Source: a virus (Duplodnaviria > Caudoviricetes). From it: a DNA stretch of 57,366 nucleotides. Of the stretch, positions 1 through 53,249 are shown one piece after another (the first letter of the stretch is position 1; every line of letters starts with the position of its first letter). Location of the stretch: positions 1 to 57,366 of the IMG/VR virus record IMGVR_UViG_3300045974_001005; one strand, 5' to 3'. The notes under the pieces are model-generated. The model did not search any database, was not told the origin of the DNA, and worked only from the letters and a program-made list of their open reading frames with translations. The position numbers and the translations under genes were made by a program.

Positions 1-768
1 ATGTATTTTTTCATGCTTAAAAATCATAGTTGGCGGATACGCCTGCAAGCCGCTTTCGCAACCTGGCTGGGGCGTGCGTTACCCGCGCCAGCAAACAACC
101 TGCCACCAACCGTTTCACCCGCCACGCCCGTAGCGCCTGCAACCCCGCTACCCGTTGCTGCGCAAGCCAGCACATCCGCATCCATCACCCCAATCACATG
201 GTTCGCCGCGCTGTCACGCGATCTTTTGCCCGTGCTTTTCATCGACACAGCATCAGGCCAGCTTATTAAAATCAACGGCATGTCGCGCAAGCAGTTGGCG
301 GAATATCTGCGCTGCCCAATTTACACCGACCACACCACCCGCTGGACTTCGCTTGGCAATGAATTGCGCCGCGAAGGTTTCACGGTTGCCACGGCATTTC
401 AGGCGCAGGAAGATGCCTTGCTCGCCATGGAAGCGCTGGAAAGCGCAAGATGGTATGCCACTGCCCAACTGGCGCATCTGGACAACGAAATCCATCAAAC
501 CTTTGTGACGCTGATCGCACCGCTGATAGAACACGGCGATGATGCCACAGCCGTTACCCCACTGATGAGCAAAGCCGCGCTGGCCAACTTTGCGCAGTTG
601 CTGGTCTGCCGCAAAACCATGAGCGAGGAACTGGCCCGGATTGACGAAGAAGCCATCCCGACCCTGCAACGGATTGGCATGGCGCTACCTGCCGAAATGG
701 TGAGCGCCCTCACTGCCACCCGCAGCCAAGCGCCAGCTTACGCCCCCACCAGCGAGTGCGCAGCATGA
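1..768 (+). CDS. Hypothetical protein with Pro/Ala-rich N-terminal linker and C-terminal helical hairpin (start may be at 13)
   Basis: 255-aa ORF; its stop overlaps the next start (ATGA at 765-768). Confidence 0.7.
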   Translation: MYFFMLKNHSWRIRLQAAFATWLGRALPAPANNLPPTVSPATPVAPATPLPVAAQASTSASITPITWFAALSRDLLPVLFIDTASGQLIKINGMSRKQLAEYLRCPIYTDHTTRWTSLGNELRREGFTVATAFQAQEDALLAMEALESARWYATAQLAHLDNEIHQTFVTLIAPLIEHGDDATAVTPLMSKAALANFAQLLVCRKTMSEELARIDEEAIPTLQRIGMALPAEMVSALTATRSQAPAYAPTSECAA

Positions 769-1232
769 AGCCTGACATCCGCACCCGCACCGCGTACCCG
801 CCCCTGCGCACCCAATTTGCGCAACGGCTTTGGTGCCCCAGCCCCGGATGGACGCCATGCCACGCACTGCGCGCTGCACAAGTACGCCATGCAGGCGCAT
901 TGCAGCCAGTGCACACGCAGGATTGCCAACCGGATGGCCGCGCACTGGCCAAGCTGCGTGCGCTGACACGCACCCAACGCTATGCCCAAAATGAATTGGC
1001 CCAACTTGAAGCGGAATTGGCCGCGCTGCTGAAAACCATCGGCCCGCCACCGCAAGGCTTGGCTGCATGCGCAGCCTCCGCCACCACCGCAAAGGCCCGC
1101 GCCAAGCACCGCAGATTGAAGGGGTTGCAAATCGCCTGTCGGGATATCAGGGAAGAATTGGCATGGATTGATGCCGACCTGAAAGCCGCATGGGACGAGA
1201 TCGAAGCAAGCCAATCCGCCGCCCCGGCCTGA
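765..1232 (+). CDS. Hypothetical coiled-coil protein, apparent paralogue of the 1-768 C-terminus
   Basis: ATGA coupling at 765; segments RYAQNELAQLEAEL and CRDIREELAWIDAD resemble ORF1. Confidence 0.7.
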   Translation: MKPDIRTRTAYPPLRTQFAQRLWCPSPGWTPCHALRAAQVRHAGALQPVHTQDCQPDGRALAKLRALTRTQRYAQNELAQLEAELAALLKTIGPPPQGLAACAASATTAKARAKHRRLKGLQIACRDIREELAWIDADLKAAWDEIEASQSAAPA

Positions 1233-1364: not shown

Positions 1365-2636
1365 ATGATATCCACCTCACCGCTTACCGACCGCAGGCTG
1401 TTACCGCTGGAACAGGTGCGCTTGCGCATGCCACAATCATGGCAAACTCCCCTTGTCGCCGATGCCCTGCTGACCTTGCTGTTCTTCCGGCTCGTATCCT
1501 GCCATTGGACTGAGGAAGCCATGCGGTTTCAGGTCGCAGGCAAGGCGAGCGAAACGCTTTTGCAAGCCATGCTGGACAGCGGCCAATTCTTGATGAGTGC
1601 CAATGCGATGTTTGCGAACTGTCGGGCGGGCAACCCGGCGCACCTTGGTGCAGCGATTCAGGAAACCATGCAGACATGGATCAACTCGCAGGTGAGCGAT
1701 ACCGCGCATAAAAAGCTGGCCGCGATTCTCCGCCCGGAACGCTTTGGCAACCTGTTCGCCGATGCCAGTGAATTGGCCAAGGCGCTCGATCTGATCGACG
1801 CCATCACCATTGACCCTGCCACCCCTTCGCCGCAACTCGGTGCATTGTTTGCGCAGGCCATGCACTTGCTGGGCAGCGGCCCCGCGCCCGCCGTGCAGGA
1901 CGCCATGGTGCGGCTGGCGCAACTGGTGCAACCGCAAGCCAACGAGATCGTGTTTGATCCGGCTTGCGGCCAAGGCAACCTGTTGCAATCGTGCGCGGCA
2001 GCGCTGGCACTGCGTGCCCCCGCCAGCACGATGCACTTGTGCGGCATGCAAGCACTGCCAGACGATTGGGCACTGGCCTGCATGCTGCTGCACCTGTCCG
2101 GTCAGCACCATTTTTCGTTGACCCTTGGCGGGCCAACCCATACCCCGATTGCCGCGCAGATATTCCAGCAAGTGACGCCTGCCGATCTGGTGGTGACCAT
2201 GTTGGTACACAAGACACCCATGGCGCAAGCCGTGACCACCCTTCGCTATGCGCTGGCCTGCATGAAACCTGACACCGGGCGCATGGGCGTGCTGGTGCCG
2301 TTGTCCCTGCTGGCATCCATTGAGGGCAAGACCATCATCCGCTTGCTGCTGGAACAGGATTTTCTTGATGCCGCAGTTGGCCCGCTGACAGACGATGCGT
2401 CACCGCTGTTGATCCTGCTGCTACGCCAACAACGCACGCGTGTCCCGGTGGCTTTCATCAGCGCCGCCCCGGATGGCGATGCGGCAGACAATGCGGCAGC
2501 GGCGCTTGCAGCCTGGCAACAGGGGCAAAGCCATGCAGCCTTGCGCGAGCTTGACCCGCAGGCCATCGCAAATCGGCAGTACACACTTGTTGCCCACAAC
2601 GAAGGCCAATCCGGCGCTGACCGGGGTGGTGGGTAA
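1365..2636 (+). CDS. HsdM-like N6-adenine methyltransferase homologue 1, catalytic motif lost
   Basis: Motif I VFDPACGQGNLL; HsdM-type GRMGVLVP and FLDAAV segments; motif IV position reads ADLVVTMLVH rather than DxVxxNPPF. Confidence 0.8.
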   Translation: MISTSPLTDRRLLPLEQVRLRMPQSWQTPLVADALLTLLFFRLVSCHWTEEAMRFQVAGKASETLLQAMLDSGQFLMSANAMFANCRAGNPAHLGAAIQETMQTWINSQVSDTAHKKLAAILRPERFGNLFADASELAKALDLIDAITIDPATPSPQLGALFAQAMHLLGSGPAPAVQDAMVRLAQLVQPQANEIVFDPACGQGNLLQSCAAALALRAPASTMHLCGMQALPDDWALACMLLHLSGQHHFSLTLGGPTHTPIAAQIFQQVTPADLVVTMLVHKTPMAQAVTTLRYALACMKPDTGRMGVLVPLSLLASIEGKTIIRLLLEQDFLDAAVGPLTDDASPLLILLLRQQRTRVPVAFISAAPDGDAADNAAAALAAWQQGQSHAALRELDPQAIANRQYTLVAHNEGQSGADRGGG

Positions 2637-2857
2637 GTATCCATTTTGGCGGCAACGCCAATACCGAATCTGTTGCAAGTTGAGCCGACCATGACACGGT
2701 TCGATTTGTGGCAGATGTCTCCCGCGATGTTTGTCATTCATCGCGCTTCTTGGGCTGGTGTGTGCATTTAACCCCTGTTCACTCCAAGACGTGTGTTTCC
2801 CGCACCAGCCCTTGTTTTTAGCCAACCGAATTCAACCCGTTTTATTTTTCAAAGCGC

Positions 2858-4225
2858 ATGAACAACAATGCCGCACTCATGATCTACCGCGCCAAGGCGC
2901 TGATGCCCACCTCCATGGGCGCACACGAATGCGCAGACATGCTGGTGACCTTGTTATTTTGGAAGCTGGTTTCCGACTGGTGGCGCAGCGGCGCACCGCA
3001 CTGGTGGCAATCCTATTCCGGCAGAAACCCGGCCTGCGTCGCCATGGAACGGCAAAATGTCCTGCTGTGCGCTGACGCCGCCATTTACGAAGCCTGCCAG
3101 TGGCCGCATGGCGGCGAAACGAATGAAGCCATCGAGGCCGGCAAGGCAATTCGTGCATCGCTGTATGCCTTGGCACGGGCACAAACCAAACCCGCTGCGA
3201 TGATGGACATGTTGCGCCCGGAACGCTTTGGTGAATTGGGCGAGTTCGCCGCTTCATTCCGCTGCGCCAATACCTTGCCAAAGGTGATCGATATCATCGG
3301 TGGCATCAGCAACATCCCGCCCGAGCGAATGGGCAAGACCTTGATTGATCTGGTCGGCACGCTGGAAATGTACCCACCGTGGCCAACGGCCAGAAGCATC
3401 AGGCTGATGGCGAAGTTGCTCAATCCCTTGCGTGGTGAAACCGTGCTTGACCCGGCCTGCGGCAGCGGACAATTGTTGCTGGCCTTGGTGGCGGACATCG
3501 AAAGGCACGAGCGCGACCATGAACTGGTATTGCTTGGCCAAGAAAACCGCACCAGCCAATGGGCCATCACCAAAATGCAATTGCTGCTGCGGCCCCTGAT
3601 GCTGCATCGGGTGGACAAATCCGACGCGTTGGATTCGCCCTTGCTGGACAGCGCAACAGAGCAGTTGCAACAGGCCGACGTGGTGGTGCTGGCCGTCCCT
3701 GACGAAGCGCAGGAATGGAACCCGGCAAGCCATTCTCACGATGCGCGCTTCCCGCACGGCGTACCGGAAAGCGGCCGCATTGCCCTGATGTGGCATGCGC
3801 TGGCCTGCATGAAGGCGGACAGCGGGCGCTTGGGTCTGCTGGTGTCGGGCTCGCTCTTGGCCCTTGATGCCAGTTTGCCGCTGCGCCGCTATCTGGTGGA
3901 TAAGCAGTTGCTGGAAGCCATCATCCAGTTGCCGCGCATACGTCGCCAAACCGTGCAAAGCGCAGGGTGTTTGCTGCTGATTCGTCCGGCGCAAGCAACG
4001 ATTGCGCTCATCGGTAAGCCCTTGCCGCAAAGCGATGCGGACAAATCCAACTATTCCACCGACGACATCGAAGCGGCTTGGAACGACTTGCGCATGTGCC
4101 GTACTCACCCCTGCCTGCAAACGGTGTCGGGCGCAACCATTGCCGCGCAAGGCTACCCATTTGTTCCTCCTGCCATACCCGAACCTGCTGACCCTGCACC
4201 CCCTTGCCAGAAAGCCAAGCCATGA
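2858..4225 (+). CDS. HsdM-like N6-adenine methyltransferase homologue 2, catalytic motif lost
   Basis: LLFWKLVSD N-terminal motif, VLDPACGSGQLL, LLGQE, DARFPHGVP, LLEAIIQLP; motif IV position reads ADVVVLAVPD. Confidence 0.85.
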   Translation: MNNNAALMIYRAKALMPTSMGAHECADMLVTLLFWKLVSDWWRSGAPHWWQSYSGRNPACVAMERQNVLLCADAAIYEACQWPHGGETNEAIEAGKAIRASLYALARAQTKPAAMMDMLRPERFGELGEFAASFRCANTLPKVIDIIGGISNIPPERMGKTLIDLVGTLEMYPPWPTARSIRLMAKLLNPLRGETVLDPACGSGQLLLALVADIERHERDHELVLLGQENRTSQWAITKMQLLLRPLMLHRVDKSDALDSPLLDSATEQLQQADVVVLAVPDEAQEWNPASHSHDARFPHGVPESGRIALMWHALACMKADSGRLGLLVSGSLLALDASLPLRRYLVDKQLLEAIIQLPRIRRQTVQSAGCLLLIRPAQATIALIGKPLPQSDADKSNYSTDDIEAAWNDLRMCRTHPCLQTVSGATIAAQGYPFVPPAIPEPADPAPPCQKAKP

Positions 4226-5499
4226 CCTCTTTACTGTCCACCCTCGAATCCGCCCTCAGCCTGATGCCGCACGACGTTGCGGTTGGCACCCGTGCCAGCG
4301 TGTTGTTGCAATTGCTGTTGCTCAAGGCCCATTCTGACATTTGGCAACATCAGGTGACCCAGGCGGAAAAGGCAGGCACACCACTCTGCGCCTTCAACGC
4401 CAACCAAACCCAACGCAAGCAACTGTTGATGAACGACGCCTGCCTGTACGACAACTGCCTGTCCGCGCCACCCGAAGAGACGGGCAAGGCCATCCGCGAT
4501 GCCCTGCTTGCCTTTGTCACCTGTCAGGCGCACGGCGAACTCCATGGTGTATTCCAACCGGAACAGTTTTTGCGCCTTGATTCGCTATTGAGTCAGCATG
4601 GCAAAACCACGCATCTGGCCGACATGGTGCGGGCCTTGGGTGAATTGTCCTTTGCCGACATCCTGCCATCGCCTGATCTTGGGGAAGTCATTGCGCAGGC
4701 TTTCATAACGCTGGGCCTTGGCCCCGATCCGGCACAGTGCGAGGCCGCCCAATTGATGGTGCAATTATTAAAACTAAAAAACGGGCAACGGTTATTTGAT
4801 CCGGCGTGCAGTCAAGGTATGCTGCTGTATGCCGCCGCCAGCCATATGGCGCGCTTTGCCCCCGCCGAGGCAGTTGGCTTGTGTGGCATGACGGCAAACC
4901 GGAACGATTTTACGGTCGCCAGCATTTTGTTCATCCTGTGCGGCCAACCGCAAGCGCGCCTGCATCTGCGGGACTGCCTTGATGTCATGGCACAACAAAG
5001 CCCGCAATCTGATCTGGTGCAGGCCGACCGGGTTTTGACCATCATCCCCGATGCTGCCATTGCGTGGAACCATGCGCTGGCATTGCGCGATGCTGATCCG
5101 CGCTTTCCGGTACGGCCCCCGGCAGATAGCCGCGTGGCGCAGTTCTGGATTGCCTTGGCCAGTGTCAACCGCTCTGGACGCATGGCCGCATCGATTCCCG
5201 CACACCTGTTTGAGAGCGTGGACGGCAATGCCTTGCGCGCATATCTACTCAAGCACAACCTGCTGGAAGCGGTTATCGCATGGCCTGCGCCAGCCACGGA
5301 AGCAAGCCCTGTAATGAAAGGGCGCAATCTTGTTTTGCTGAATCGGCAAAACCCGCATGCCGGATCGGCTTGGATTGGCCCCGGATTGGGCAATCCGGCC
5401 AACGATAGCGGCGTACCTTATGACGCCAACAACGTTCTGTTGGCGTATGGCGCATGGCTACAGCAAAAACGCAATCCGCATTTGCTGGCCGGGTCATGA
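4222..5499 (+). CDS. HsdM-like N6-adenine methyltransferase homologue 3, catalytic motif lost
   Basis: ATGA coupling at 4222-4225; LFDPACSQGMLL, DPRFPVRPP, LLEAVIAWP; motif IV position reads ADRVLTIIPD. Confidence 0.8.
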   Translation: MTSLLSTLESALSLMPHDVAVGTRASVLLQLLLLKAHSDIWQHQVTQAEKAGTPLCAFNANQTQRKQLLMNDACLYDNCLSAPPEETGKAIRDALLAFVTCQAHGELHGVFQPEQFLRLDSLLSQHGKTTHLADMVRALGELSFADILPSPDLGEVIAQAFITLGLGPDPAQCEAAQLMVQLLKLKNGQRLFDPACSQGMLLYAAASHMARFAPAEAVGLCGMTANRNDFTVASILFILCGQPQARLHLRDCLDVMAQQSPQSDLVQADRVLTIIPDAAIAWNHALALRDADPRFPVRPPADSRVAQFWIALASVNRSGRMAASIPAHLFESVDGNALRAYLLKHNLLEAVIAWPAPATEASPVMKGRNLVLLNRQNPHAGSAWIGPGLGNPANDSGVPYDANNVLLAYGAWLQQKRNPHLLAGS

Positions 5500-5563
5500 T
5501 TGCGCCCGGTTCGTATTGCCAACTGGCTTGATCAACAAACCAAACCCCTACCGAAAGGAAACC

Positions 5564-5917
5564 ATGGAACTTTCAGATATGTCCCTCTCGCAATTGCGGG
5601 ACTTGCAAAACCAGTTGAGCGCCGAAATACAGCGGCGCAACCAAGCCGAAATTGAATGCGCCCGGCAACAGATTCTGGCCATTGCCGCCAGCGCAGGCAT
5701 GTCGCTTGCCGCTCTGCTTGCCATACCGAAACGGGCAGCATCACTAAAAGCCAAGTCCGTTCCCGTGCGCTACCGCCATCCGCACGATGCCACCCTGCAA
5801 TGGACTGGCCGTGGCCGTGCGCCCTTGTGGGTAGCCGAATGGGTCAACGAGCACGGCAACCGCGATGGACTGCGCATTGCCGACACCAATCAATCAGTGA
5901 ATGGAGGTCAAGCATGA
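5564..5917 (+). CDS. hns: H-NS family nucleoid-associated protein
   Basis: SD AAAGGA before ATG 5564; C-terminal RYRHP...QWTGRGRAPLW DNA-binding signature; N-terminal coiled coil. Confidence 0.93.
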   Translation: MELSDMSLSQLRDLQNQLSAEIQRRNQAEIECARQQILAIAASAGMSLAALLAIPKRAASLKAKSVPVRYRHPHDATLQWTGRGRAPLWVAEWVNEHGNRDGLRIADTNQSVNGGQA

Positions 5918-6507
5918 AAACAGAAGTCGAATTGCATCACCGCGCCGAATTACGTCAAGCCAGTGGCACGCCAATCGCTGGCGAAAAGAACCAAGGCTTG
6001 GTGGTGGTCTTCACGGGCAAGGGCAAAGGCAAGACCACTGCCGCCATCGGCATGGCATGGCGCATGATCGCTGCACAAAAACAGGTCGCGGTGCTGCAAT
6101 TTGTCAGCGCCATGGATAACAGCGCCGAATTGCAGACCTTGGGGCAAAACCCGCTGTGCACATTCAAAGTGTATGGCAGCGCTTGCCAATGGCAAGGCAC
6201 AAGCCACAAGGCGGATGTCGGCGCGGTCAATGCCATATGGCACGATGCAAAAAACCTGATGGCCAATCCGGCCATCAGCATGCTGATTCTGGACGACATC
6301 CTGCCCGTGATCGGCAACTCCTATTTGAATCTGGATGCATTGATACAGGCGTTGAAGAACCGCCGCCCCGATTTGCATGTGGTGCTCACCGGACGCAATG
6401 CCGTGTTTGAACTGACCGATTTTGCCGATCTGGTGACCGACATGCGCTGCATGAAACATCCGTACCCGGATAAAAAGATCGCGCCACAGCCAGGTATCGA
6501 GTTTTAA
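5914..6507 (+). CDS. cobO: ATP:corrinoid adenosyltransferase (CobA/CobO/BtuR family), atypical
   Basis: SD GGAGG and ATGA overlap with hns; GLVVVFTGKGKGKTTAA P-loop, HVVLTGR, ADLVTDM, KHPY, C-terminal GIEF. Confidence 0.88.
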   Translation: MKTEVELHHRAELRQASGTPIAGEKNQGLVVVFTGKGKGKTTAAIGMAWRMIAAQKQVAVLQFVSAMDNSAELQTLGQNPLCTFKVYGSACQWQGTSHKADVGAVNAIWHDAKNLMANPAISMLILDDILPVIGNSYLNLDALIQALKNRRPDLHVVLTGRNAVFELTDFADLVTDMRCMKHPYPDKKIAPQPGIEF

Positions 6508-6544
6508 AAACCTGCTGCCAACGGACAATGACAGGGGAAATGAC

Positions 6545-7702
6545 ATGACCGTTTTACATGTGCCACTGCTGGACGTGGTGCGCATCAATCCAGAGCCAGC
6601 CATGGATGGGCGAGTAGGCAAGGTGGCCTACATCAGCGCCGACCAGATCAAGCCCGATACGCTGGACGTACAAGCCGAAGTCCGGGCTGATATTGACCTG
6701 TCAGGCAAACCCGGCTGTTTTCAGGCAAACGATTTATTGCTGCCCGACCAATGGCGCAAACTGGCAGCGGGCGCGGTTTGCCAAGTTCATAGTGATCTGC
6801 CCCATGGCTACCATGACGGCGAGTTGCTGACACTGCGCGCCGATCCGCATCATTTGGACAATCGTCTTTTGTTGTACCTGTTACGCCAACCCGCGATGGC
6901 AGATCAAATCCGGGACTGGTATGCCAACCAGTCCAACAAAATAAGGAGGGTGGCGACATTTTTGCAGCAATTGCGCCTGCCGCTGCCACCGCTACGCACG
7001 CAAAGAGAGTGGCTGACGCAACTGAACCAGGCGTCAGAGCATTGCCAGCGGCAACAAGTGCAATGGCTGGCTTTGGATCAACGGCGTCGGCACCTGTTCA
7101 TGGATGTATTTGGCACAGCGGCACAGATGCAGCAACGGTGGCCTGCCGTGCCGCTGCCCAGCCTGCTGCATGGCTATCGGATGGGGGCGGAATCGACTTA
7201 TCGCGCCCTCTATCAAGGCCCGTTGATGATCCTGCCTGCCCACCTTGGTAGCCATCGTTTTAGCTGTGCCGATCCGGTTTTTCTGCACGAAGGGCGACCA
7301 CCACCCAGCAGCCTGCAAATATTCGCAGGGGACGTGCTGCTTGACACCGGCATCGGTACGGCGCATGCAACTGCGGTTCCCGCAGGGATACCAACCGCCT
7401 TTGCCGGGTCGGGCGTGGCCCTGATGCGGCCAAAACAGGTCGAGCCGGGTTTTCTGGCGGGCTACTTTTGCGCCGAGATCGCTGTCCAGGCGTTTGAAAA
7501 GCAAATCACGGATAAAAAACAGCAGGCGATCAAGCGTAGCAACCTGACGGCATTGTCGGTGCATTTGCCGCCTGCCGAATTGCAAAAGGTCTTTGTTGAA
7601 CAGAGCGCGGCCACTTTGCCCGAGATCGACGAAGCCGAGCGCCAATGGCGGCACGCCTGCAAACAGTTGGCGTTGCTGGCACGCCAGCTATTCGGCTCCT
7701 GA
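6545..7702 (+). CDS. Type I restriction-modification specificity subunit homologue (HsdS-like, diverged)
   Basis: Two TRD-like halves, each followed by a conserved-region motif (LPLPPLRTQ; HLPPAELQKVF); central FMDVFG...W linker; GDVLL. Confidence 0.8.
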   Translation: MTVLHVPLLDVVRINPEPAMDGRVGKVAYISADQIKPDTLDVQAEVRADIDLSGKPGCFQANDLLLPDQWRKLAAGAVCQVHSDLPHGYHDGELLTLRADPHHLDNRLLLYLLRQPAMADQIRDWYANQSNKIRRVATFLQQLRLPLPPLRTQREWLTQLNQASEHCQRQQVQWLALDQRRRHLFMDVFGTAAQMQQRWPAVPLPSLLHGYRMGAESTYRALYQGPLMILPAHLGSHRFSCADPVFLHEGRPPPSSLQIFAGDVLLDTGIGTAHATAVPAGIPTAFAGSGVALMRPKQVEPGFLAGYFCAEIAVQAFEKQITDKKQQAIKRSNLTALSVHLPPAELQKVFVEQSAATLPEIDEAERQWRHACKQLALLARQLFGS

Positions 7703-7766: not shown

Positions 7767-8432
7767 ATGCGCGTTTCTTCGACCATTTTCCTGTTGACCT
7801 GTCTTTTGGCAAGCGCCATCCTTCCCGCGCACGCGGCAGAAAACGAAGTCAGGGTGCCCATCCCGGCCATCGGCCTGGGATCGCCCGCCGCCACCTTGGT
7901 CAAAATCATTTGGGATTCCACCAAACCCGCGCAAATTACCTTGAACCCCACGAACGCAAAACCCATGGCAGCGGCCAGCATGCCGCCCATGGTCGGCGAA
8001 TTGTTGCGCGTGGAGCCCAGCATACCGATAGCGGGCGCACGCGCCAGTTGGTTGGCTTTTGCCCAATCCGACATCAGTCTTTGCGCCGTCAAAGCCGATT
8101 CGCCCGATCTGGTTTGCGTGCGTCTGGCGGTGCCCAACCTTGGCGCAACCTGGGTCAGTGTCGAAGCGGATGCGCCAAGCGGGCATTTTGCCCTGCGTTA
8201 CCGCTTTCGCTACGACCAGCGCTTGAACGGCATGGTCATCCATACCCCCCTGCTGGGGACGGTCGCCATTGGCCTGGCACACGCGATTGCCGGGGCCAGC
8301 GCCGCAATGGGAGACTTTTTCGTGACGGGCAATCCCGATTCCATCGCCGTGACCGCTGATACCTGCATCGCCGGGGTGCGTGACGGCGTGGCGTGGGAAC
8401 GCGGTGAAGGGTGTAGTCCACTGCCAAAATGA
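7767..8432 (+). CDS. Secreted or periplasmic hypothetical protein
   Basis: Signal peptide MRVSSTIFLLTCLLASAILPAHA; paired cysteines. Confidence 0.7.
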   Translation: MRVSSTIFLLTCLLASAILPAHAAENEVRVPIPAIGLGSPAATLVKIIWDSTKPAQITLNPTNAKPMAAASMPPMVGELLRVEPSIPIAGARASWLAFAQSDISLCAVKADSPDLVCVRLAVPNLGATWVSVEADAPSGHFALRYRFRYDQRLNGMVIHTPLLGTVAIGLAHAIAGASAAMGDFFVTGNPDSIAVTADTCIAGVRDGVAWERGEGCSPLPK

Positions 8433-8614: not shown

Positions 8615-9055
8615 ATGAAATTGTTTAAAAATTCGTTATTGGGACTTGGTTTGATTGCAATGAGCCCGTTTTGCTTGGCGCAAACCCCGGTTACCGCCAA
8701 CATACAAGGGACGCAACAATGCGTCAAAGTATACGGGGCAAAAGTCACTTTGCCAGACGGCACCAATGCCCGCGTCAAAACACGCAATGGTGAAATGGCC
8801 ACCATCACCGTTACGCCGGATGGTCGGGGCATCGGCATCACGCCATCTACGTTGGATACCAAACCGGGCCTTGTCAGGCTGGAAATTTTCAATATCACCA
8901 CTGACGCAGACAAAAAGCCTGTTGCCGTACATGCTGCATTTGTGAAAGTGGCTGAACAGGGCGAAGCAACTTATGCGCAGGGTAACCTGAGCTTTAAAAT
9001 CGAAATGTTGCCCGCAGCGCCTGCGATCAGTGGTGACAAGCAATGCAAAATATGA
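8615..9055 (+). CDS. Secreted beta-rich hypothetical protein
   Basis: SD GGAG before ATG 8615; signal peptide MKLFKNSLLGLGLIAMSPFCLA; lower GC than flanks. Confidence 0.75.
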   Translation: MKLFKNSLLGLGLIAMSPFCLAQTPVTANIQGTQQCVKVYGAKVTLPDGTNARVKTRNGEMATITVTPDGRGIGITPSTLDTKPGLVRLEIFNITTDADKKPVAVHAAFVKVAEQGEATYAQGNLSFKIEMLPAAPAISGDKQCKI

Positions 9056-9092: not shown

Positions 9093-12000
9093 TCACTGCG
9101 CCAACTCCTTCCTCACCGCCAGCTTCAACGCCTTCGGCGCGGTGTGCTGCGTGCGCAAAATCACATCCTCCCGCATCGCCCGTACCCGCTTGGCCACACC
9201 CGGCATGTCAATTTTGATCGGAGTTTCCGGGTTTTTCCGATTCCAGTCATCGCGCCATGCCCTCGCTTCCCGCTGCATCGCCACATCCCCGCTGGCAATC
9301 CCTTGCGCCAAATGCTCGGCAATTTCGGTTGATCGCATCCGGGTTTGCGCAATCATGTTCAGTGCTTGCCCTTTTGCGTCCTGAATATTGGCCGTGCTGT
9401 TTGGCTGAAAACCGACCATTTTCATGATGCCTTCCAATGGCGTCACATCGTTGACCTTGTAGCCGCGTGCATCCTTGTACTGGCCGCTGGCCATCATGTC
9501 GGCCCCCTTGGCGAGGTTGCGCACCGATTGCGGCGATACATCAAGCGCCGCTCCCACCAGATCACCATCGAGCAACTTGCCAACACCGCTAAAGGCGCGT
9601 TTGGCAATGTCACCCGCAGGCCCAGCCAATTCGCCCAGGTCTTGGGTGTAAGACATTTTCTTGGTCAACAAACCCGTGGCCGGAATCAAATTGCCCATCC
9701 CCAGCCGTCCGGCTACGTCAATCGGCATGCCAGGCAAGCTGGATATGCCCTTGATGGCGAAGTCGGCACCGCTGCTTCCCAGCACGTCCGTGAAGAAGGC
9801 TTGCTTTTGGCGTTTGGTCGAAAAGTTGTAGCCCAGCCGTTGCAGCAGACCATCCATCAAGTCTTCCAGGTTCTTTTCAAACGGCAGGCCATCCATGCCC
9901 GACATCAGGAACAGCACCGCCAACATATATAAAGCGCCGCGTCGGCCCGCTGCCCGCTGCGGTGAACCGGGGCTACCTGCAAAGGCCATGCGGGACAGCA
10001 ATTCCACGTAGGCGATGCTGTACTGCTTGAACGTCATCAACAAGCCGCCCAAACTGGAGCGCGCCCAGCGCGGCTTGTTGCCGCTGTTGTACACGCCTTG
10101 CGTTTGTGCCACCGCTTGCCGTGCAAACCCTGCCGGGTTGGCGAAGCCTTCGGCCACGGCAGTGCGCCATGCGGCAATAAAGGTAATGCGCCGATTCGAT
10201 AGCTCGGCAATGGCAAACAATTTGCCCCAGCCCACCATAACCTTGGCAATGGCATTGTTCAACTGCGCCCGCGCATCGCCCAGCGCGGTGCCATCCCCCG
10301 ATTGTAACGCGCCGCGCCCCGCTGCCTGTGCTTGCAGGTAATGCACTTCTTGCGGTGCCACGATGCCTTCATCGCTGGCCCACTGCAAGGCCGCATCGAG
10401 TTTGGCATCCCCGGTTTCGTCTTTGCGCGCATCACGCACCGCTGTCATCAAGCGTTCGCTGGCCTTGGTGATCCCGCCAAACTGGCTCAGATAAGGCAAA
10501 GTCATGGTCAGCGGTTGGGTCAGGTTGACCATGGCGGATGCCACCGAGCCACCCAAAAACTGTGCAAACATCAAGCCGCCCAGCATGGTGCCGCCCGATT
10601 CCGGGTTGCGGATGTGTTCGCGCAATTGCATCGCGGCATCAATCAGTTGCCCTTGTTCCTTCGGTATGCTGGTGACGGCTTCATCAATTTCGCCCAGGTG
10701 GACATTGCCCGCCGTTAACCGTGCATTCGAGTACACGAACGACGCCAACACGCGTCCGGCGTCTTCAGAAAACCCGGCAATCCCCTTGCGCGTGATCATC
10801 CGCTTCAAGGCGCTGCGGTTGCTCTTGGCCAGTTGCAGGTATTTCTGGTAGACCTTGGTGCTGGCGGCATCGGTCTGAGTATCGAGCCCGACCATGCTGC
10901 CGAACAATTCAATCGTTTCCGGCGAAATGCCTGCAAACAGTTTATAAGCGTCTTCCGACAAAGTGCCTTGCGAAATCTCGGCGTCGGGATGGCTGGCGCG
11001 CATAGTGCGCGCCATTTTGGCCGCTTCCATCGCGGTTTCAAACAAGCCGAAATACAGTTGCTCGCCGTTTTCCTGCACATAGACGGCAAATCGGCCAAAG
11101 CGCGACAAGGGCGCATAGCCGCGTTGCATCAATTCCTGCGCACGTCCGGCCAGATTGGCGATGGTTTGCGCGGTTTGCAGGTGTCGCTTGGCGGGGCCAC
11201 TGTTGTCAGGCCCACCGCTGGCCTCAGCCAATTGCTGAAAGTGTTCCAACAACAAGGTGGTTGCCTCTTGCAAATTGGCGGTTTTCATCGCGGCGTCCAA
11301 CAGTGGCTTGGCATCCTTGCCGCCCATTTTCACCATTTCACTGATCGTTAAATTGGTCAGGCTCTTGTCAATGGCGGCGCGAAATTCCCGATACATGCCG
11401 ATTTGGGCCTCATTCAGGCGGAACAGGTCGCGCAGTTCGGCGTTTGTCCACACGATACCCGGCACCAGTTGCGAGTCGGCGAACTTTTTTTCTATCAAGG
11501 CGGTATAGCCCGCCTCGTTCATGCGCTGCCACACCCGGTTTTGCTCGGCATCGATGACTTGCTTTTGCATCAGGATATGGAGTTTTTCTTGCAGGCTCAA
11601 GCCTTCAGCCCGGCTTTCAAGCTCACTGATCTTGATCGCCTGACCATTGTCATCCCGCGTCCACAGCAAGGTGCCCTCAAAAATCGGCGCGGCAATGGCT
11701 TGGGTGTCCGCTGCCGTTAGCGGCTTTTTGCGCTTGCTGCCCAGGATGTCGCGCATGTTTTCCAATTTGGGCAGCAAGGTTGGTGCCTCATCTGCGGCCA
11801 CAACCGCATAGCGGGACACGTCGCCCAAAAAGCGCTGGATGGTGTGGTACACACGGGCAAAGGCGGGTTGGCGGCGCGCCAGATTGTCCATGGTGCCTAT
11901 CGTCTTGTGCCACCAGTTGAGTTTGCCGGACTGATTGAACAAATCGCCCACCACAAACCCGGCGGGCAATTGCAACTCTTGCACATTGTTGGCGGCATTG

Positions 12001-15000
12001 GCCAACGATTGGGACAATGAGTGCGCCAAGCCCCGGCTATACAGAATGTGTTCGGCCTGACCTATATTGGCGTGTAGCTCTGTGCCAATACGTCCCAATA
12101 GCGCTCGCCCATCTTCGCGGCTCTCGCTGCGTAAAACGGTACCTGTGATAGCTGCTCTTTTAATCGTTGCGCTTCCAATCGCCGCAGTCGTTGCAGTTCC
12201 TGATAACGCGGATCGTTGTCGTAGTCTGTCCGTAGCTCTTGCAGCCAGTTTTTGGAAGTCAATGTCTCCGAGCAATTCGCCCCGTTCTCCGGTAAAGTCG
12301 GCATATTCGGTGAGGTGGACATGGTTAATCTCTGGCAACAAGGAAGAAACATAATCATAAGATGCCTTGAGCATTTGCGCAAGATTGTGCTGATCCAGTC
12401 CCACCGCCCAGCTCAACCCTTTCATGCCTAGCCGCTTGGCAATCGGGCCTTTGGGATCGCGTTGCAATGCGTGTGGCCGGATATGATCGGTAGTGCCGAA
12501 TTTCATGGCGGTAGAAATCATGTTTTCCAGACGACGCATTTGCGCAACCTCGCTGAACCCGGCACTGTCGCCTTCCAATACCTTGCCGGTATTGAAGGCA
12601 TAATTGGCGACAGCGGCGTACAGCGCTGACCCACGCGAACTGCCCGATAGCAGGCGCGATGCATCGATTTGCAAGTCACGGCCAAATTCATAGACAAAGG
12701 CTTGCTTGCCATCTTCCATGGTGACCACCCATTGCTTGCTGGCCGTGGTGCGGGCTTTGGCATCGGTTTCCGGCAATGGCTGTACCTTGAACTTTGGCAT
12801 GATGTCATGCATCACGGCAATCAAATTGCGGGCGTGGGATACCGGATATTGATAGGCGTCTTCGTGCCCGGCGATGGTTTTCCAAAGGGATATCAGCCAG
12901 CTTGCTTGCTCGGCCTGGCTGAATGCAACGGCTGGTGTGACGCTTTGGGTCGCGCTTTGCTTTGTCCCCGTGTCAGATTGGGCCGGATGCTGCGCCGCCA
13001 GTTTTTGCGGTGCCCGTTGCAATGCGCGCTGCGCCGCATACACCAGATCATGCGCCGACATCATGCCCACCGCACGGAACCAGCGGGCACGCGCCAGCAG
13101 CGGCAAGCTTTGGCCAAGACTGCGGATGATGGAACGGAACCAGGCAATGACTTTTTGTGCAAACGATAATTCGGGGTTCGCTTCCAGGTAATACCCGAGA
13201 GCTTCTTCATTCATCGATTCCTTGCTGCTGCCCACCTGTTCGGCACGGGCGAACGCGGCTTGTACTTTGGGATTGCCGTTTTTCATGAGCGCAAAATAGT
13301 TCAGCAATTGCTTGAATTCGCGCGTGGCCCGTCCCAGGTGCAGCGCATGGTTGGCCAACTCGTGCAGCATCAAGCCATGCAAGGCGCTGCTACTGGCTTG
13401 CCTGCTGATCGCGTCGGCAATCAGATAGGTGACGCCATCTTGCGGATTGAAGAAGGCCACCGGCGCATAGGGTGCGGCTTGCGGCGCTTGGGCACCGTCG
13501 TCATGGCCTTGCAGCAGCGTTGACGCTTGATCGCTGTCGATCAGGCGCAGCTTGCCCGTTGCCAGCAAATTGCCAAGGAAGTCAGCACCGTAAGCATGCA
13601 GGCTCGATGACAGGGCCGGAATTAGCGATTGCACGGTGTGGGTAAGCCCAGCTTGGGCCAGCTCTGGCCGCGCCGCTTGCGACAATTTTGGACTTTCTTC
13701 AACGGCAGCATCGCCACTGTTGGCGGCGTCATCGATCAATGCCGCATGTTTGCCGGTCGATAGTTCGCTGATGACTTGATTCAAGCGCGCAAACTTGGTG
13801 TCAATCTGGTCTTGCTCGGGAAAACCGCTGCCTTTCTTGGCCAGCAGTTGCGGCAATTCATCATTGGCCTGCTGTAAGCGCGACTGCATCCATGTGATGG
13901 TGGATTCACCGCGCAATCTTTCCAAGTCTCGCAGCAAATAATCCAGTGCCCCGCGCATAATCGAGGTGTGGAAGTCGCCCGCGTCACGCTGTTCCATCCT
14001 GGTACTGGCCAAGGTGGAGCCGTCAAGGCGAAGCAAGCTCAAACTGGCGTAGTAAGCAAATTCGCCGCGCTCAATGCTGATGTCGAGCGGCAAACCCAAC
14101 AATTGCCCGACGATGACACTTTCTGACGCCTGCTTATTCAGGTTGGGAATTCGGGGCTTGATGTCTTCCCACATGGCGCGTGCGGCATCCGTGCGCCCGC
14201 CAAAGCGGCGCTGCCCGATCTCGCTGGCAAACGGGTTGGCATCACCCAAGGCATCGGAAATGGCACGCATTGCGCCATCGTCCGAAGTCAGGCGACGTTT
14301 TTCGACCGAAACAGAAAACTTGGCCTTGTCGTTGCCATTTTGCTGGCGCGCAATCGAGGCCAATACCGCTTGCTGGGCGGCATGGTGCTGGTCATATTCC
14401 ACACCTTCCACCACCACCCGGCGTGACTGCACATCGGCGAGCATGGCATTGAATCCGTTGAGAAGGGACAGTCTATCTTGTTCGGCCTGTTCAATTTGGC
14501 CAGGCAGGCGAGCAATATCGCGCTCGGCCTGTTCGATTTTGTCGGTCACGCCGCGTTGCTTGCGCAAATACTGGCGTTTTAACAGTTCCAGTTTGTCCAA
14601 TTCGCTCATCAACTTGACCCGCTCCAGCAACAGCGGATCACCCGACGCCAGCGCCGCCAATTCGGCCATGCTGACCGATTCCTCATCTTCAAATTCCATC
14701 ACGAAGGCACCGTCATATTTGCGGATGCCGTTGATGGTTTTGAGTTTGGCCGCGTTCAGGCTCCACATTTTGGCGTCAATGGTGCGTTCGGTGGCATAGG
14801 CCAGAATTTCGACTTCAAATTGGTCAACGCCATATTTTTCCAGCAAGCGATTGCCTTGCCGGATAATCCGGCCTTCGCGCTGTTCGATATCGCTGGGTTT
14901 CCAGGTCACATCGACATGATGCAAGGCCACCAGCCGTTGTTGTACATTGGTACCCGCACCCATGCGCGGGGTTGAGCCGATCAGGACGCGTACCGCGCCA

Positions 15001-18000
15001 TCGTTGACCGCATCAAACAGGGCTTGCTTTTGTTCGTCGGTATTGGCTTCCTGCACAAAACGGATTTCATGCGCGGGAATGCCTCGCGCCAGCAAATTGT
15101 CCTTAATCTGCTGGTAGGCATTCCAGCCGCCGTTCTGCGCATTGCGCAGCGCTTCAATTTCAATGGCATCAAAGGCATCAAGTTTGTCGCCAATGCGGCG
15201 CAAGGTGGATTCATCGGCATGTGCTTGCAATGCTCTGGTTTGTTCCTTGCGCAAGGCATCGTATTCGCGTATCAATGCGTTGTCGCCTTTGGATTTGGCG
15301 ACGGATCGATCCAGAAACACCAATTGCGTGCCCCGGTCGTCGTCCCACTTTTTGTAAATACGCGCCACTTCATCGGCCACTCTGTCGAGTTTGCCGCCTG
15401 TCTCAAGGCTGGGGTTGGTCGGTGCAACGGCGCGCACATCAAGCGACACCTTGCGCGCCCGATCCATCAATTTCAAGCGTTCCTTATTGCGTTCATAGGG
15501 GTCTTCGATTTCCGGCAGGCTGTCAAAGCCGTTGATGATGGCTCCCAATAGCTCAATCTGGGCGTCGGTCGGTTGAATGATCACCGATTGGCGGTCGCCA
15601 TGCATGACGCGGGGAATCGGGAAGGCGGCACCGTGATTGTCTTCCGCATAGGCGCGTTTGATGGCGTCGTTGTCCACCGAATCGGTAAAACTGTAATACA
15701 AGTCCATCAGCGAGCGCATGTTCGACCAGGTGCGGCCAAGGCGCACCACTTCGGCCAGGCGTCCGGTTTCATTCGGCTCCCATCCTGCATCCGCGCTCAC
15801 ATATTGGGCACGCCAGGCGTCAAAGTGCTCCAGCCCCAATTCTTTCAATTCATTCGCCGCCAGATAGCGCATCATGGTGTACATTTCCACCGCCGAATTG
15901 GAAATTGGCGTACCGGTCATGAACATCACGCCGCCCGTGGGCGATTCGCGCAGCACGCGCACCTTGTTATACAAGTCGAGTGCTTTTTGCGAACCGAGCT
16001 TGTTGTTCATGCCGCGCACGCCCGTCAATCGACTGGAATAAAACAGGTTCTTGAATTCGTGCGCTTCGTCAATCGTCAAGTGGTCGATGCCCAATTGTTC
16101 AAAGGTCAGCAATTTGTCTTTGCGGGTTTTGACCTTTTCCAGCCGATTCGTGATTTTTTCCACCAGCCGTTCGGCTTCCTTGACGCCAAACGGCTTGCGA
16201 AAGCCGGTGTGGCCATTGGCTTGGGCCTCGTCTTCGGCTTCTTTCACCGCATCCAGCGCCTGTTTCAGTTCAACCTGCAAAAACCGCTCTTCCGTTTCCG
16301 GGGCGATGCCAATAAACCCGAATGACGAATGGGCCATGATGATCAAGTCAAAATCACCCGTGGCAATTTTGGCAAACAGGCGACGCCTGCGCTCTTTTGA
16401 CATATCGTCTTTGCTGGCGGCCAAGACCTTGGCCCCCGGATATAGCCGATAAGCATCGGCAGTAAATTGCTCAATCATGTGGTTCGGTACCACAATCAAG
16501 GGCTTTTGCGACAGCCCCATGCGGCGGCGCTCCATCGCAATCGCAATCGAGGTATAGGTTTTACCCGCTCCTACCGCATGATCGAGCATCAAAAAGCGTT
16601 CATACACCCCACGCCAAATCGCGTTTTTTTGGTGGCGGCGCATTTTGGTGACGCTATCGGGCACTTTGCCGGGTAATACCAAGTGGGAACCATCGTATTG
16701 GCGGTTGACGCGGGTGTTGAACTTGTCGTTGAACAATTCCACCAATTGATTGCGCCGCTCGCTGTTGGCAAAGGCCCATTCTTCAAATTCCTTGGCGATG
16801 GCGCGCGCCTTGAGGTTGGCCAAATCGGTTTTTTCCCGATCCAGCACTGTCGCGCCATTCGATGCTTTGTAGGTGACGCTGATCGTGTCATTGTCCAATA
16901 ATGCTTCGATCAATTCAACCGAGGAATAGCCATCCGCGCTCCATTCATCTTCGTTGGCATTCACCCGCTTATTCTGATTGTCCAGAATCCGCACATGAAA
17001 TTGATTGCTCAGTTGCGAGAATGTCACTTTGGCCGCAACGCCGGAAATGTGAAAAATGAAATCCTCATAGGTGCGTGTCGGCACCCAGGTCGAACCGAGC
17101 AAGACCGTCACATCTTCGCTAGTCCACGGTTCAGGCTGTACCGTTTCCAAGGCCGCGATATTGGATTGCAACCCGGCAGCGCGAGCGGCATTCAATTTGC
17201 GCCGCACTTCTCCCGACAGGTAATCGTTGCGTGTTTCCCAGCGCTCGCTCTCGGGATCTTGAAAAATCAACGGTTTTTCTTGCTCCTGCACACGCTGCGC
17301 CAATTCGGGCTCGGTCATGCCCAGCAATTCGGCCAGGCGCGCCATATCGACCTTGCCTTGTTCGGCCAGGGTAATCGACAAGGCGTCGGCGAACGATTGC
17401 GCCGATGCCGGGGCAATATAGGGCACGATCACCCGGCGCGACAGGATCGGGGCCGGGTTGGCGCTGGATGGGCGGGCTTGATCACCGATTTTGGCGGCGC
17501 GTGCGCTTGAGATTGCCGGGCGATAGCCAAATTCCAGCGCCAGAATCAAGGCACCATCGGGCATATCGTTCAGCAGCGCGGCATTGGCCGGATCATTGAT
17601 CAAACCATGGTCGCTGGTAAATGCCCGGTATTGGCGGGCCAGGGACTGGCGATTTTGTTCCAACACGTCAGCAGGCGAGTTATCGGCTTCACGATTGAGT
17701 TGTTCCACCAACAAATCGCGTAACCCGACCAGCTTTTGCAAGCGTTCAAAGCGCGATTGGCCCAGCAATAGCGAGGCCGGGATGTCCGCTTCGGTCGCAT
17801 ACACCTTGCGCGCCACCACATTGCGGTTGATGGTCTTGTCGCCGCGCTTTTCCTTGACTGGCTTGCCATCATCGTCCAGCACCACCTCATTGCTATACCA
17901 GCGGCCAAGGGCATCCTGAAACAGCCTGTCAGACCATGGCGAGGCGGGCGAGAGAGTACGCTTGCTCAGTTCATGCCCGCCTTCCGGGGTTTCCCGTTCG

Positions 18001-52140: not shown

Positions 52141-53106
52141 TCATTCGCATAAGCCATAGCTGGATGAGCAAGCGCTGGCATCATGCAAGGCGGTGAGTAA
52201 AGAAAATTGCCTGCCGCCATGCGCGGTTTGCGACCAGCGCACCATTTGATGGATATTGGCTTTGGCAAAAATGGCTTGATCGGTGTCGCCATCGCGGGTT
52301 TCGCCCGGCCCTTTGTGCAACATGGTGGAATAGCCGCGCTTGGCGGCGCTGGAGACAAGACGTTCCCAGGCCGCAATGCGGGCAATGTGCTCTGGAAAGC
52401 GCAACCCGATTTCCTTGAGTTCGCCTTTGCTGACATTGACGCAGGGCATACAACCGACCCGCGACATGCCTTGCCGATAAAGTGGATTGGGTTCAATTCC
52501 ACACGTCTTGCACCAAGCGAACACCTCCTGCGCCGACCAATCAACCAGTGGCCGATAGACATGCAAGCCCGCGCCCAGGTATTCATAGCGCTTGGCGGCG
52601 CGGCGGCTAATGGATTCATCGCGGCGCACCCCTTGCCAACTGACCACCGTATAACCGGCATCAACCAGGGACAATTGATACTGGACGGCCAAATCGCGTT
52701 TCAGGTGCTGGGTACAGAATTGCGCCATGCGACTTGGGAAGCGGCCTTTCCATAAACAGACATCCAGAAATGGAATCCCGGTGGGGTGCAAGATTGCCAA
52801 TGCGCGCCGCTTCGCTTTGTTGCTCCAGCGCAGGCGACGGCCATTGACGCGCTGGTGGCGGTTATCGCGTGCGATGAACATCCGCTTGGCGGCGATCTCT
52901 GCCGAAAAGTCGGCCTTTAATCGGACAATCGTGATGCCTGTCGCCGCTTCAAGATAGTCGAGGTAGTCGTACACCGCCACATGTTCATTGCCAGTGTCGC
53001 AAAAGATGGCGCGTACCCGGTGCTTGCCAAAGCGGGCAATCGCCAGCAACAAGGTGGCGGCGCTGTCTTTGCCGCCAGAAACCGATACAACGTGAACAAT
53101 ACTCAA
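52141..53106 (-). CDS. PAPS reductase family (PP-loop) protein
   Basis: SVSGGKDS, DTGNEH, CT..LK, GVRRDES..R, NPLY..G.SRVGCMPC, terminal CSSSYGLCE; TTG start with SD GGGAG. Confidence 0.9.
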   Translation of the reverse strand: MSIVHVVSVSGGKDSAATLLLAIARFGKHRVRAIFCDTGNEHVAVYDYLDYLEAATGITIVRLKADFSAEIAAKRMFIARDNRHQRVNGRRLRWSNKAKRRALAILHPTGIPFLDVCLWKGRFPSRMAQFCTQHLKRDLAVQYQLSLVDAGYTVVSWQGVRRDESISRRAAKRYEYLGAGLHVYRPLVDWSAQEVFAWCKTCGIEPNPLYRQGMSRVGCMPCVNVSKGELKEIGLRFPEHIARIAAWERLVSSAAKRGYSTMLHKGPGETRDGDTDQAIFAKANIHQMVRWSQTAHGGRQFSLLTALHDASACSSSYGLCE

Positions 53107-53249
53107 AGCGACTCCCAAATTTTGGGTAATGGAATCCCCTTGGCAATCGGGTTGCCAATCTCATGTCAAACAAGGGGAGGTAAAAAGTCAGTGCAAGACT
53201 GACTCAGGCATCAAGTGCCTTCAGGAAGAATTGAGCGTGCTCATTTTGT

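Follow-up and report, generated by a model that had tools for sequence, protein, structure and literature searches.

Tandem HsdM-like proteins of a provirus as probable pseudo-methyltransferases in an apparently unnamed clade

The methylation (M) subunit of Type I restriction-modification systems is defined in textbooks by the catalytic motif NPPF and by its docking on the specificity (S) subunit. In phage P1, the Dar system relies on a giant injected methylase-helicase protein that is encoded beside accessory genes. This report concerns three tandem genes, here called M1, M2 and M3, whose products resemble the Type I M subunit HsdM and which are located near one end of a provirus (Duplodnaviria; Caudoviricetes; IMG/VR record IMGVR_UViG_3300045974_001005). 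The record was analyzed over its full length of 57,366 bases, hereafter the window, and its completeness is estimated at 86%. In the related enzyme PacII, the C-terminal tail of the M subunits was reported to form a four-helix bundle with the coiled coil of the S subunit, and deletion of this tail “completely disrupts” M1M2S assembly (PMC9613975). A further paper describes that, in PacII-type enzymes, a subunit whose NPPF or NPPY is mutated to APPA methylates far less or no longer at all (PMC5100572). Ronin, a system of HsdM and HsdS without a restriction subunit, was described in a preprint as mounting a suicide response that is independent of methylase activity and insensitive to the F287G substitution in NPPF (bioRxiv 10.1101/2023.04.06.535777).

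Against this background, M1–M3 and the clade to which they belong are likely to be pseudo-methyltransferases, that is, pseudoenzymes. This reading is proposed because the HsdM fold has been kept, three defining features of HsdM have been lost throughout the clade, and the former catalytic positions vary freely. M1 (1365..2636, plus strand, 423 aa) is the most degenerate copy, M2 (2858..4225, plus strand, 455 aa) is the best preserved, and M3 (4222..5499, plus strand) has 425 aa, as in the gene call of the source collection. The M3 frame is open from 4204 (4204-5499, 431 aa), and the ATG at 4222, which overlaps the M2 stop as ATGA, is the likelier start. All three proteins pass the cut-off of the Pfam family N6_Mtase (PF02384; 20.4 bits), M1 with 25.2 bits, M2 with 86.8 and M3 with 42.7; the match in M1 is confined to residues 184-256. 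Against the TIGR00497 equivalog (cut-off 242.75), M2 reached 34 bits, and M1 and M3 were without a match. Identity is 28% between M1 and M2 and 31% between M1 and M3. The original prediction of three highly diverged tandem copies of HsdM fold, free of stops over 420-455 aa, is confirmed by these reading frames and scores.

The fold itself was examined with an AlphaFold2 model of M2 (predicted local distance difference test score, pLDDT, 76.5; predicted template modelling score, pTM, 0.79). The best Foldseek matches of this model were PacII M1 and M2 (7vs4/7vru), with template modelling (TM) scores of 0.72-0.73, followed by other HsdM structures, which bears out the predicted fold. A profile of the family matches PacII M1 and M2 over their full length (E = 1e-38 and 5.6e-34). 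What has been retained in M1–M3 is the N-terminal helical domain of HsdM and the Rossmann core with motif I, part of the pocket for S-adenosylmethionine (SAM).

Motif I reads DPACGQG in M1, DPACGSG in M2 and DPACSQG in M3. In the motif IV column, HMMER alignments and the family profile place MLVH in M1, AVPD in M2 and IIPD in M3, exactly as had been read from the sequence at the outset. In M2, HMMER aligned LAVPDE on the ANPPYS (7vru_B) and ANPPFS (7vru_A) of the PacII M subunits, and the family profile agrees. The pattern [NDS]PP[YFW] was sought across the full sequences of M1, M2 and M3 and is absent from all of them, so an alternative motif IV elsewhere in these proteins was not found by sequence scan. 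Approximately 24 residues are missing from M1 directly after MLVH. As far as the homologues tell, this deletion is specific to the M1 lineage, because P0014, a homologue of M1 with 45% identity, still carries the segment (VVPE...). Motif II is GMQ in M1, GQE in M2 and GMT in M3, with the acid lost in M1 and M3, and motif III is DAL in M2 and DCL in M3, its acid being absent from M1. In place of motif X (G-E/Q-F/Y-Y/F-T-P), the three proteins have EMYPPWP, GSGPAPA and GLGPDPA, and the alignment with canonical sequences shows a gap there. The suggestion that selection has maintained cofactor binding therefore fits M2, which keeps motifs I, II and III, and fits poorly with the motif II and III changes of M1, the GMT of M3 and the lack of motif X in the clade.

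The same losses were found well beyond the window. A 15-row profile, run exhaustively with HMMER, yielded 7,098 hits at E ≤ 0.001, of which 237 reached E ≤ 1e-30; the top 150 were aligned. The clade comprises P0001-P0046 except P0042, with scores above about 200 bits, and within this alignment all of its members are without NPPF and without a GEFYTP motif X; canonical HsdMs begin at about 213 bits in the same list. At 50% identity, its size is about 45 clusters in a collection of 1.84 billion representatives. The pattern [NDS]PP[YFW] occurs anywhere in 0/47 clade sequences. Residues were counted in 40 clade rows, after seven near-identical rows had been dropped, and compared with the 109 other hits of the top 150. 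At the N position of motif IV, the seven commonest states of the clade are A 8, V 8, R 5, I 3, H 3, gap 3 and M 2, with no N, D or S among them, versus N 53 and H 20 in the other hits. The first proline is never present in the clade (V 15, L 15, I 7, gap 3) and is found in 85 of the 109 others; the second is kept in 32/40 versus 103/109. The F/Y position is most often occupied by D (11), E (10), a gap (4), H (3), V (3), L (2) or A (2), these being the seven commonest states, versus F 73 and Y 10 outside the clade. Such free variation at motif IV is as expected for a non-catalytic site. Motif I is better preserved (D, C and last G in 36, 37 and 37 of 40; each of its positions in 31-37), as is the loop RFP.GVP after motif IV. 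The motif II acid is present in 28/40 clade members and D or N of motif III in 24/40.

Two further motifs had been considered private to the three copies. PERFG/PEQF is real, and it marks the entire clade (LRPERFG, with P121 invariant in 15/15 rows). By contrast, ALACMK..GR.G, thought to be peculiar to copies 1 and 2, belongs to an ordinary HsdM region: its G is found in 109/109 and its R in 100/109 of the non-clade HsdMs. A separate observation concerns these non-clade HsdM-like proteins (P0047-P0160), of which just 47/109 carry a strict [NDS]PP[YFW]; in 20 the N is replaced by H, and readings such as LPF and PPE occur in others. To judge from this alignment, motif IV may vary more among HsdM relatives than is usually assumed.

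The third feature lost is the C-terminal tail. After the N-D-Y column, M2 has 22 residues, which are proline-rich, and M1 has 17; M3 ends before the N-D-Y motif and has 0. The median is 22 aa in 33 clade members, 32 of which have at most 39. In the 86 canonical proteins used for comparison, which are 450-560 aa long, it is 51.5 aa, and 81 of them have at least 47. Assembly of M1–M3 into a canonical M2S methylase is thus unlikely, as the clade lacks NPPF/Y, motif X and the tail that anchors HsdM on S. The notion of ordinary HsdM paralogues working with the HsdS-like protein of the window is not sustained, given the effect of tail deletion reported for PacII (PMC9613975) and the absence of HsdS from a related module (the provirus locus L004). 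On these sequence features, the clade is a distinct, apparently unnamed group of HsdM-derived proteins without motif IV, motif X and the C-terminal tail. Full-text literature searches, with paper supplements outside their scope, returned no description of such a clade. The losses are, on the same grounds, more than chance, because they are common to orthologues at 42-47% identity and to the entire clade.

The relationships among the three copies were examined with IQ-TREE, using 42 clade rows and 10 canonical rows and leaving out rows shorter than 330 aa. The clade was monophyletic (100/100). M2 falls within a 14-row sub-clade (94/86), and M1 and M3 fall within a 17-row sub-clade (97/97) on separate branches, M3 with P0025 (100/98) and M1 with P0014 (100/100). 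In an approximately unbiased (AU) test, forcing M1, M2 and M3 into one clade cost 180.5 log-likelihood units (p-AU 9e-63), the tested group having been chosen after the tree was seen. The three genes are therefore, by this phylogeny, ancient paralogues and not a recent local triplication, and monophyly of the three copies is rejected. Support for the clade, the AU test and the freely varying motif IV uphold the idea that the duplications are old and that selection has maintained the copies after the catalytic motif was lost.

Members of this clade seem to be rare. A word-based search gave, besides the query, eight relatives of M2 (85-86%, 41-47% and 26% identity), four of M1 (P0011-13 at 86-87% and P0014) and one of M3; overall, orthologues are found at 42-47% and at 85-88% identity. 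P0012 and P0003, homologues of M1 and M2, both come from contigs of 3,943 bases, and P0002 and P0016, homologues of M2 and M3, both come from contigs of 5,630 bases. These equal sizes suggest that the same adjacency of M genes exists in a relative that is about 86% alike. A tblastn search with M2 found in plasmids only ordinary HsdMs with less than 30% identity, and otherwise two HsdMs of Liberibacter phages. Pattern scans of viral, genome and metagenome contigs with the first queries found no relative, and a DNA search with 1365-7702 gave zero matches in plasmid and phage collections. At E ≤ 1e-60, with four to five candidates scored per genome, G002 itself was the only one of 401 sampled genomes of its order in which the clade was detected, and 3/301 genomes from the family of G003 had it (G002, G003 and G447). 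A further candidate in G002 (G002:C63, 199 bits) was rejected as a member; it is a canonical HsdM with GEFYTP, NPPF and tail.

The left end of the window holds ten open reading frames (ORFs) on the same strand, which converge on an ORF of 4,938 aa on the opposite strand. Upstream of M1 are Up1 (1..768, plus strand, 255 aa), which was not assigned to a family, and Up2 (765..1232, plus strand, 155 aa). M3 is followed, all on the plus strand, by genes for an H-NS-like DNA-binding protein (5564..5917, 117 aa; PF00816, 3.6e-10), a homologue of the ATP:corrinoid adenosyltransferases CobA/CobO/BtuR (5914..6507, 197 aa; PF02572, 1.8e-46) and an HsdS-like specificity protein with two target-recognition domains (6545..7702, 385 aa; PADLOC Specificity_I, 8.1e-21). 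Two genes whose products start with signal-peptide-like sequences lie between the HsdS-like gene and the giant gene: sp1 (7767..8432, plus strand, 221 aa), whose membership in the module is uncertain, and a second ORF (8615..9055, plus strand). The stop of the upstream gene and the start of the downstream gene overlap as ATGA at Up1/Up2 (765), M2/M3 (4222) and H-NS-like/CobA-like (5914). These three overlaps speak for a single, translationally coupled operon at the end of the prophage that includes Up1, Up2, M1, M2, M3 and the H-NS-like, CobA-like and HsdS-like genes. A consensus scan of the operon for promoters and terminators gave background level only, and the gap between M1 and M2 (2637-2857) contained no convincing small ORF. 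Pond and river metagenome contigs, 80-99% alike, cover the module stretch. A single river-metagenome contig (run X4) joins 1063 to 2643, which would remove M1; with 46 letters on the shorter side of the junction, this is weak evidence.

The giant ORF encodes a DarB-like polyvalent protein (9093..23909, minus strand) with a methylase region and LPD37 (8.9e-57), SNF2-rel, ResIII and Helicase_C domains. Its methylase region carries GNPPFG in translation, in agreement with the intact NPPF that had been predicted. It lies among genes for internal virion and ejection proteins, which belong, with the portal and terminase genes, to a podovirus-like structural block. The cluster holds no separate HsdR gene, and the sole ResIII/SNF2 domain is that of the polyvalent protein on the other strand; the scan with HsdR models covered the cluster. 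At the right end of the window, an integrase gene runs off the sequence. A PAPS-reductase-like gene (3'-phosphoadenosine-5'-phosphosulfate; 52141-53118, minus strand; phrog_424, 3.2e-73) is also found within the prophage. Such genes are common in phages and have no settled role.

Among the accessory proteins, Up1 had no Pfam, NCBIfam, PHROG or PADLOC match, and only a long helical hairpin (about residues 128-225) was modelled confidently by AlphaFold2 (pLDDT 55). Foldseek against the PDB gave 0 matches at E ≤ 0.001 and generic coiled coils only, and a search of the Atlas gave no usable match. A complex prediction for M1 with Up1 scored 0.00 in two runs without controls, which is no evidence either way. 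Up2 had no family match, and no homologue of it was found at the other loci compared. The CobA-like protein scores 159 bits against PF02572, falls below the NCBIfam cut-offs (169.6 versus 185; 151.6 versus 167.75) and matched no PHROG family. It matches Salmonella CobA over the full length (PDB 1g5r/4hut, 1.4e-30) and has an intact P-loop (GKGKGKTT). Two cysteines were considered as the mark of a module-specific CobA variant and rejected, since the housekeeping-type copies of the same genomes carry them too. In the HsdS-like protein, the PADLOC match covers residues 24-375 and Pfam Methylase_S scores 22.6 bits; a PDB sequence search gave no match. Among the module loci, this gene is present only in the window and a near variant, and a metagenome contig of 1,880 nt, about 93% alike, spans the end of the CobA-like gene, the HsdS-like gene and sp1. 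Neither sp1 nor the ORF at 8615-9055 had a family match; in G003:C582, a gene homologous to sp1 (28%) comes after a CobA-like gene.

Beyond the window, parts of the module were seen in two more proviruses and in three metagenome-assembled genomes (MAGs) from a single bacterial family, the number of M-like copies ranging from 0 to 3. The contexts available for comparison were six or so short MAG contigs of this family and three related proviruses. The provirus locus L004 (57,983 bases) has two tandem M-like genes with AIGP and QLPE in the motif IV column, a CobA-like gene (PF02572, 1.7e-34), a gene for a 238-aa protein and an H-NS-like gene, followed by a giant ORF on the opposite strand. The 238-aa protein was considered as S-like and rejected on comparison, and HsdS is absent from this module. 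The second M-like protein of L004 (7469-9139) ends in a Ser/Gly-rich low-complexity stretch of about 100 residues in place of the canonical tail helix. In L035 (G447:C850, 7358-10080), a giant gene faces an Up1-like gene (344 aa), a 104-aa gene, a CobA-like gene and a 196-aa gene, with no M-like gene. L009, a MAG contig of 3.1 kb, carries three tandem M-like genes, and its genome G003 has further copies on four contigs. Giants homologous to that of the window flank the module in L004 (64% over 1,545 aa) and L035 (35-43%). Between the window and L004, identity is 64% for the giant protein, 49.5% for the H-NS-like protein, 41% for the CobA-like protein and about 31% for the M-like proteins, which by these values are diverging faster than the giant protein.

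In L019 (34%, 2e-39), L020, L026 and, in a short form, L008, the gene directly before the M-like gene encodes an Up1 homologue; Up1 is found upstream in 5/7 loci with a visible upstream side. In several loci, two paralogous XRE-type helix-turn-helix (HTH) genes and a gene for a protein of about 285 aa that belongs to no known family point away from the operon (L004, 2047-4468; L026, 1135-3401; partly L020, 3-976). These divergent HTH genes may be regulators of the Up1/M-like operon; the window begins at Up1, and the corresponding side lies outside its view. Solo M-like genes on MAG contigs were found beside histidine kinases that are homologous to one another (29-34%) and response regulators (L008, 2-718; L018, 6544-8175 and 5470-6150; L019, 7193-8692 and 4663-5310), a recurrent association with two-component signalling.

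Taken together, the following reading is favoured. In view of established Type I enzymology, the M-like proteins would not methylate DNA amino groups and would not build a canonical M2S enzyme. They would instead be non-catalytic mimics of Type I methylase subunits that attach to partners or to DNA-like surfaces and leave the DNA unmodified. Together with the DarB-like protein, such mimics could help the phage in restriction conflicts as dominant-negative or decoy subunits. The three paralogues may give breadth or form hetero-oligomers, and the S-like and H-NS-like proteins could add DNA targeting in this phage. A role in restriction conflicts is preferred because of the giant neighbour, the fast divergence, the variable copy number (0-3) and the apparent control by divergent HTH genes. 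This whole statement, ancient HsdM-derived pseudoenzyme paralogues acting as mimics in restriction conflicts, is given a probability of about 0.4.

Several points weigh against this reading. The proposed counter-restriction role draws on analogy and neighbourhood. The solo M-like genes of L008, L018 and L019, with kinases and regulators in apparently chromosomal settings, do not fit a purely phage counter-defence. L035 retains the Up1-like, small and CobA-like proteins beside its giant without an M-like gene, which makes M-like genes dispensable for the backbone of the module. These chromosomal, kinase-linked copies and the M-less module of L035 are the main reason why confidence in the favoured reading is modest. 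It is not obvious how the HsdS-like protein would bind M-like proteins that have no tail, and L004 lacks this protein. Since the window, L004 and L035 belong to related phages, their shared layout is not independent evidence. The boundary of the clade was set by score and motif from a single HMMER list, with the ambiguous P0052, P0102, P0110 and P0121 excluded from the counts. Finally, D or E at the former F/Y position in 21/40 members leaves room for another chemistry.

Other explanations have to be weighed against the same observations. The M-like proteins could belong to a decoy-type defence comparable to Ronin and borne by a prophage or island, in which they would imitate a Type I methylase, bind incoming anti-restriction proteins (DNA mimics such as Ocr or ArdA) or other phage factors, and thus release or activate an effector encoded nearby. 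The location of the module at the end of the prophage, a usual place for defence cargo, is in keeping with this explanation. So are the solo M-like copies in chromosomal loci, the loop after motif IV that the clade has conserved, and the reported independence of the Ronin suicide response from methylase activity, with F287G neutral (bioRxiv 10.1101/2023.04.06.535777). However, no effector was recognized, and PADLOC gave no match in the module beyond generic methyltransferase and S models. Ronin HsdM, as described, keeps NPPF and works as HsdMS, whereas the clade is without the S-docking tail and L004 is without HsdS. A defence of this kind is considered unlikely.

The neighbouring CobA-like gene suggests a different role, in which the M-like proteins would bind an adenosyl ligand through the part of the SAM pocket that they retain, its adenosine-binding half (motifs I-III). 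Together with the CobA/CobO-like protein, they would sense or handle SAM, S-adenosylhomocysteine (SAH) or adenosylcobalamin, either in auxiliary metabolism or in a sensory function. CobA-like homologues are linked to the module in L004, L021, L037, L038 and L035. The gene lies within two genes downstream of an M-like gene in 4/6 loci with a visible downstream side (the window, L004, L021 and L037, and not L008 or L018); in L021 and L037 it follows the M-like gene, and in L037 it overlaps the end of that gene. The clade counts for motifs I, II and III, along with the loss of motif X, also agree with such a role, although the motif II acid has been lost in M1 and M3 of the window. The link between CobA and M may be positional, because CobA-like and Up1-like genes occur in L035 without an M-like gene. 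Moreover, the CobA-like protein resembles other module copies (41-47%) about as much as it resembles the housekeeping-type copies in MAGs (46%), whose neighbours are gloB-like, methyltransferase and RNase T genes, and for this reason it looks like a captured host gene. These points make an adenosyl-ligand role distinctly unlikely. An extension of this role, which is quite improbable, would treat Up1, the M-like proteins (0-3), the small protein and the CobA-like protein as a new phage-borne conflict module, with HsdM-derived pseudoenzymes turned sensors or carriers of an adenosyl compound that the captured corrinoid adenosyltransferase supplies or consumes. If true, this would tie B12/SAM cofactor chemistry to restriction or anti-restriction.

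It was also considered that the proteins are still enzymes, which transfer a methyl or other group via a non-canonical site ([VLI]-P-[DE]) or have another target atom or substrate. Motif I is conserved and the second proline is kept in most members, and the acid at the former F/Y position could take part in such a site. In the other 19/40 members, however, this position is taken by H, V, L, A, a gap or something else, so that no catalytic residue is conserved. The region is deleted in M1, motif X is absent, and in PacII-type enzymes changing the N and F/Y of motif IV was described as abolishing or greatly reducing methylation by that subunit (PMC5100572). Retained catalysis is improbable. Decay of a Type I system into functionless remnants, to which the lineage-specific deletion in M1 and the metagenome contig that may skip M1 could point, is hardly credible given three open frames, orthologues at 42-47% identity with the same features, a clade of some 45 clusters and signals of coupled translation.

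The reading as non-catalytic mimics, if true, would be a case from nature in which subunits of a restriction enzyme have been put to a new, non-enzymatic use. A diversified clade has kept the HsdM fold and yet shed catalysis, motif X and the docking tail, and old paralogues of it stand in tandem in phage cargo, next to a giant injected protein of the anti-restriction type. M1–M3, Up1 and the CobA-like protein are concrete handles toward a new counter-restriction or decoy mechanism. There is also a warning for annotation. Because these genes exceed the Pfam N6_Mtase threshold, domain-based annotation would label them as DNA methylases; in the source annotations, one relative is named a type I methylase subunit and others are “hypothetical protein”.

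Among known systems, PacII M1 and M2 (PDB 7VRU, 7VS4) are the closest in sequence and fold, and there, too, different M genes lie in tandem upstream of an S gene. PacII differs in having NPPF in M1 (N6-methyladenine, m6A), NPPY in M2 (N4-methylcytosine, m4C), motif X, an S-bundling tail and an HsdR gene that follows; M1–M3 of the window have no NPPF/NPPY, motif X or tail. With canonical HsdM (EcoKI, EcoR124I; PF02384, TIGR00497), the clade shares the N-terminal helical domain (TLLFWKxxSD), the Rossmann core, motif I and the G-R motif, but it lacks NPPF, GEFYTP and the tail, and M2 scores far below the TIGR00497 cut-off. Ronin decoy immunity resembles the locus in its Type I-like M and S genes without HsdR and in a function that is reportedly independent of methyl transfer. 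The HsdM of Ronin, for its part, still has NPPF and functions jointly with HsdS and RonA, a membrane effector of 61 aa; no such effector was identified here, where RonA itself was not searched for. With the Dar system of phage P1 and other polyvalent proteins, the locus shares a giant methylase-helicase protein beside accessory genes in a temperate phage.

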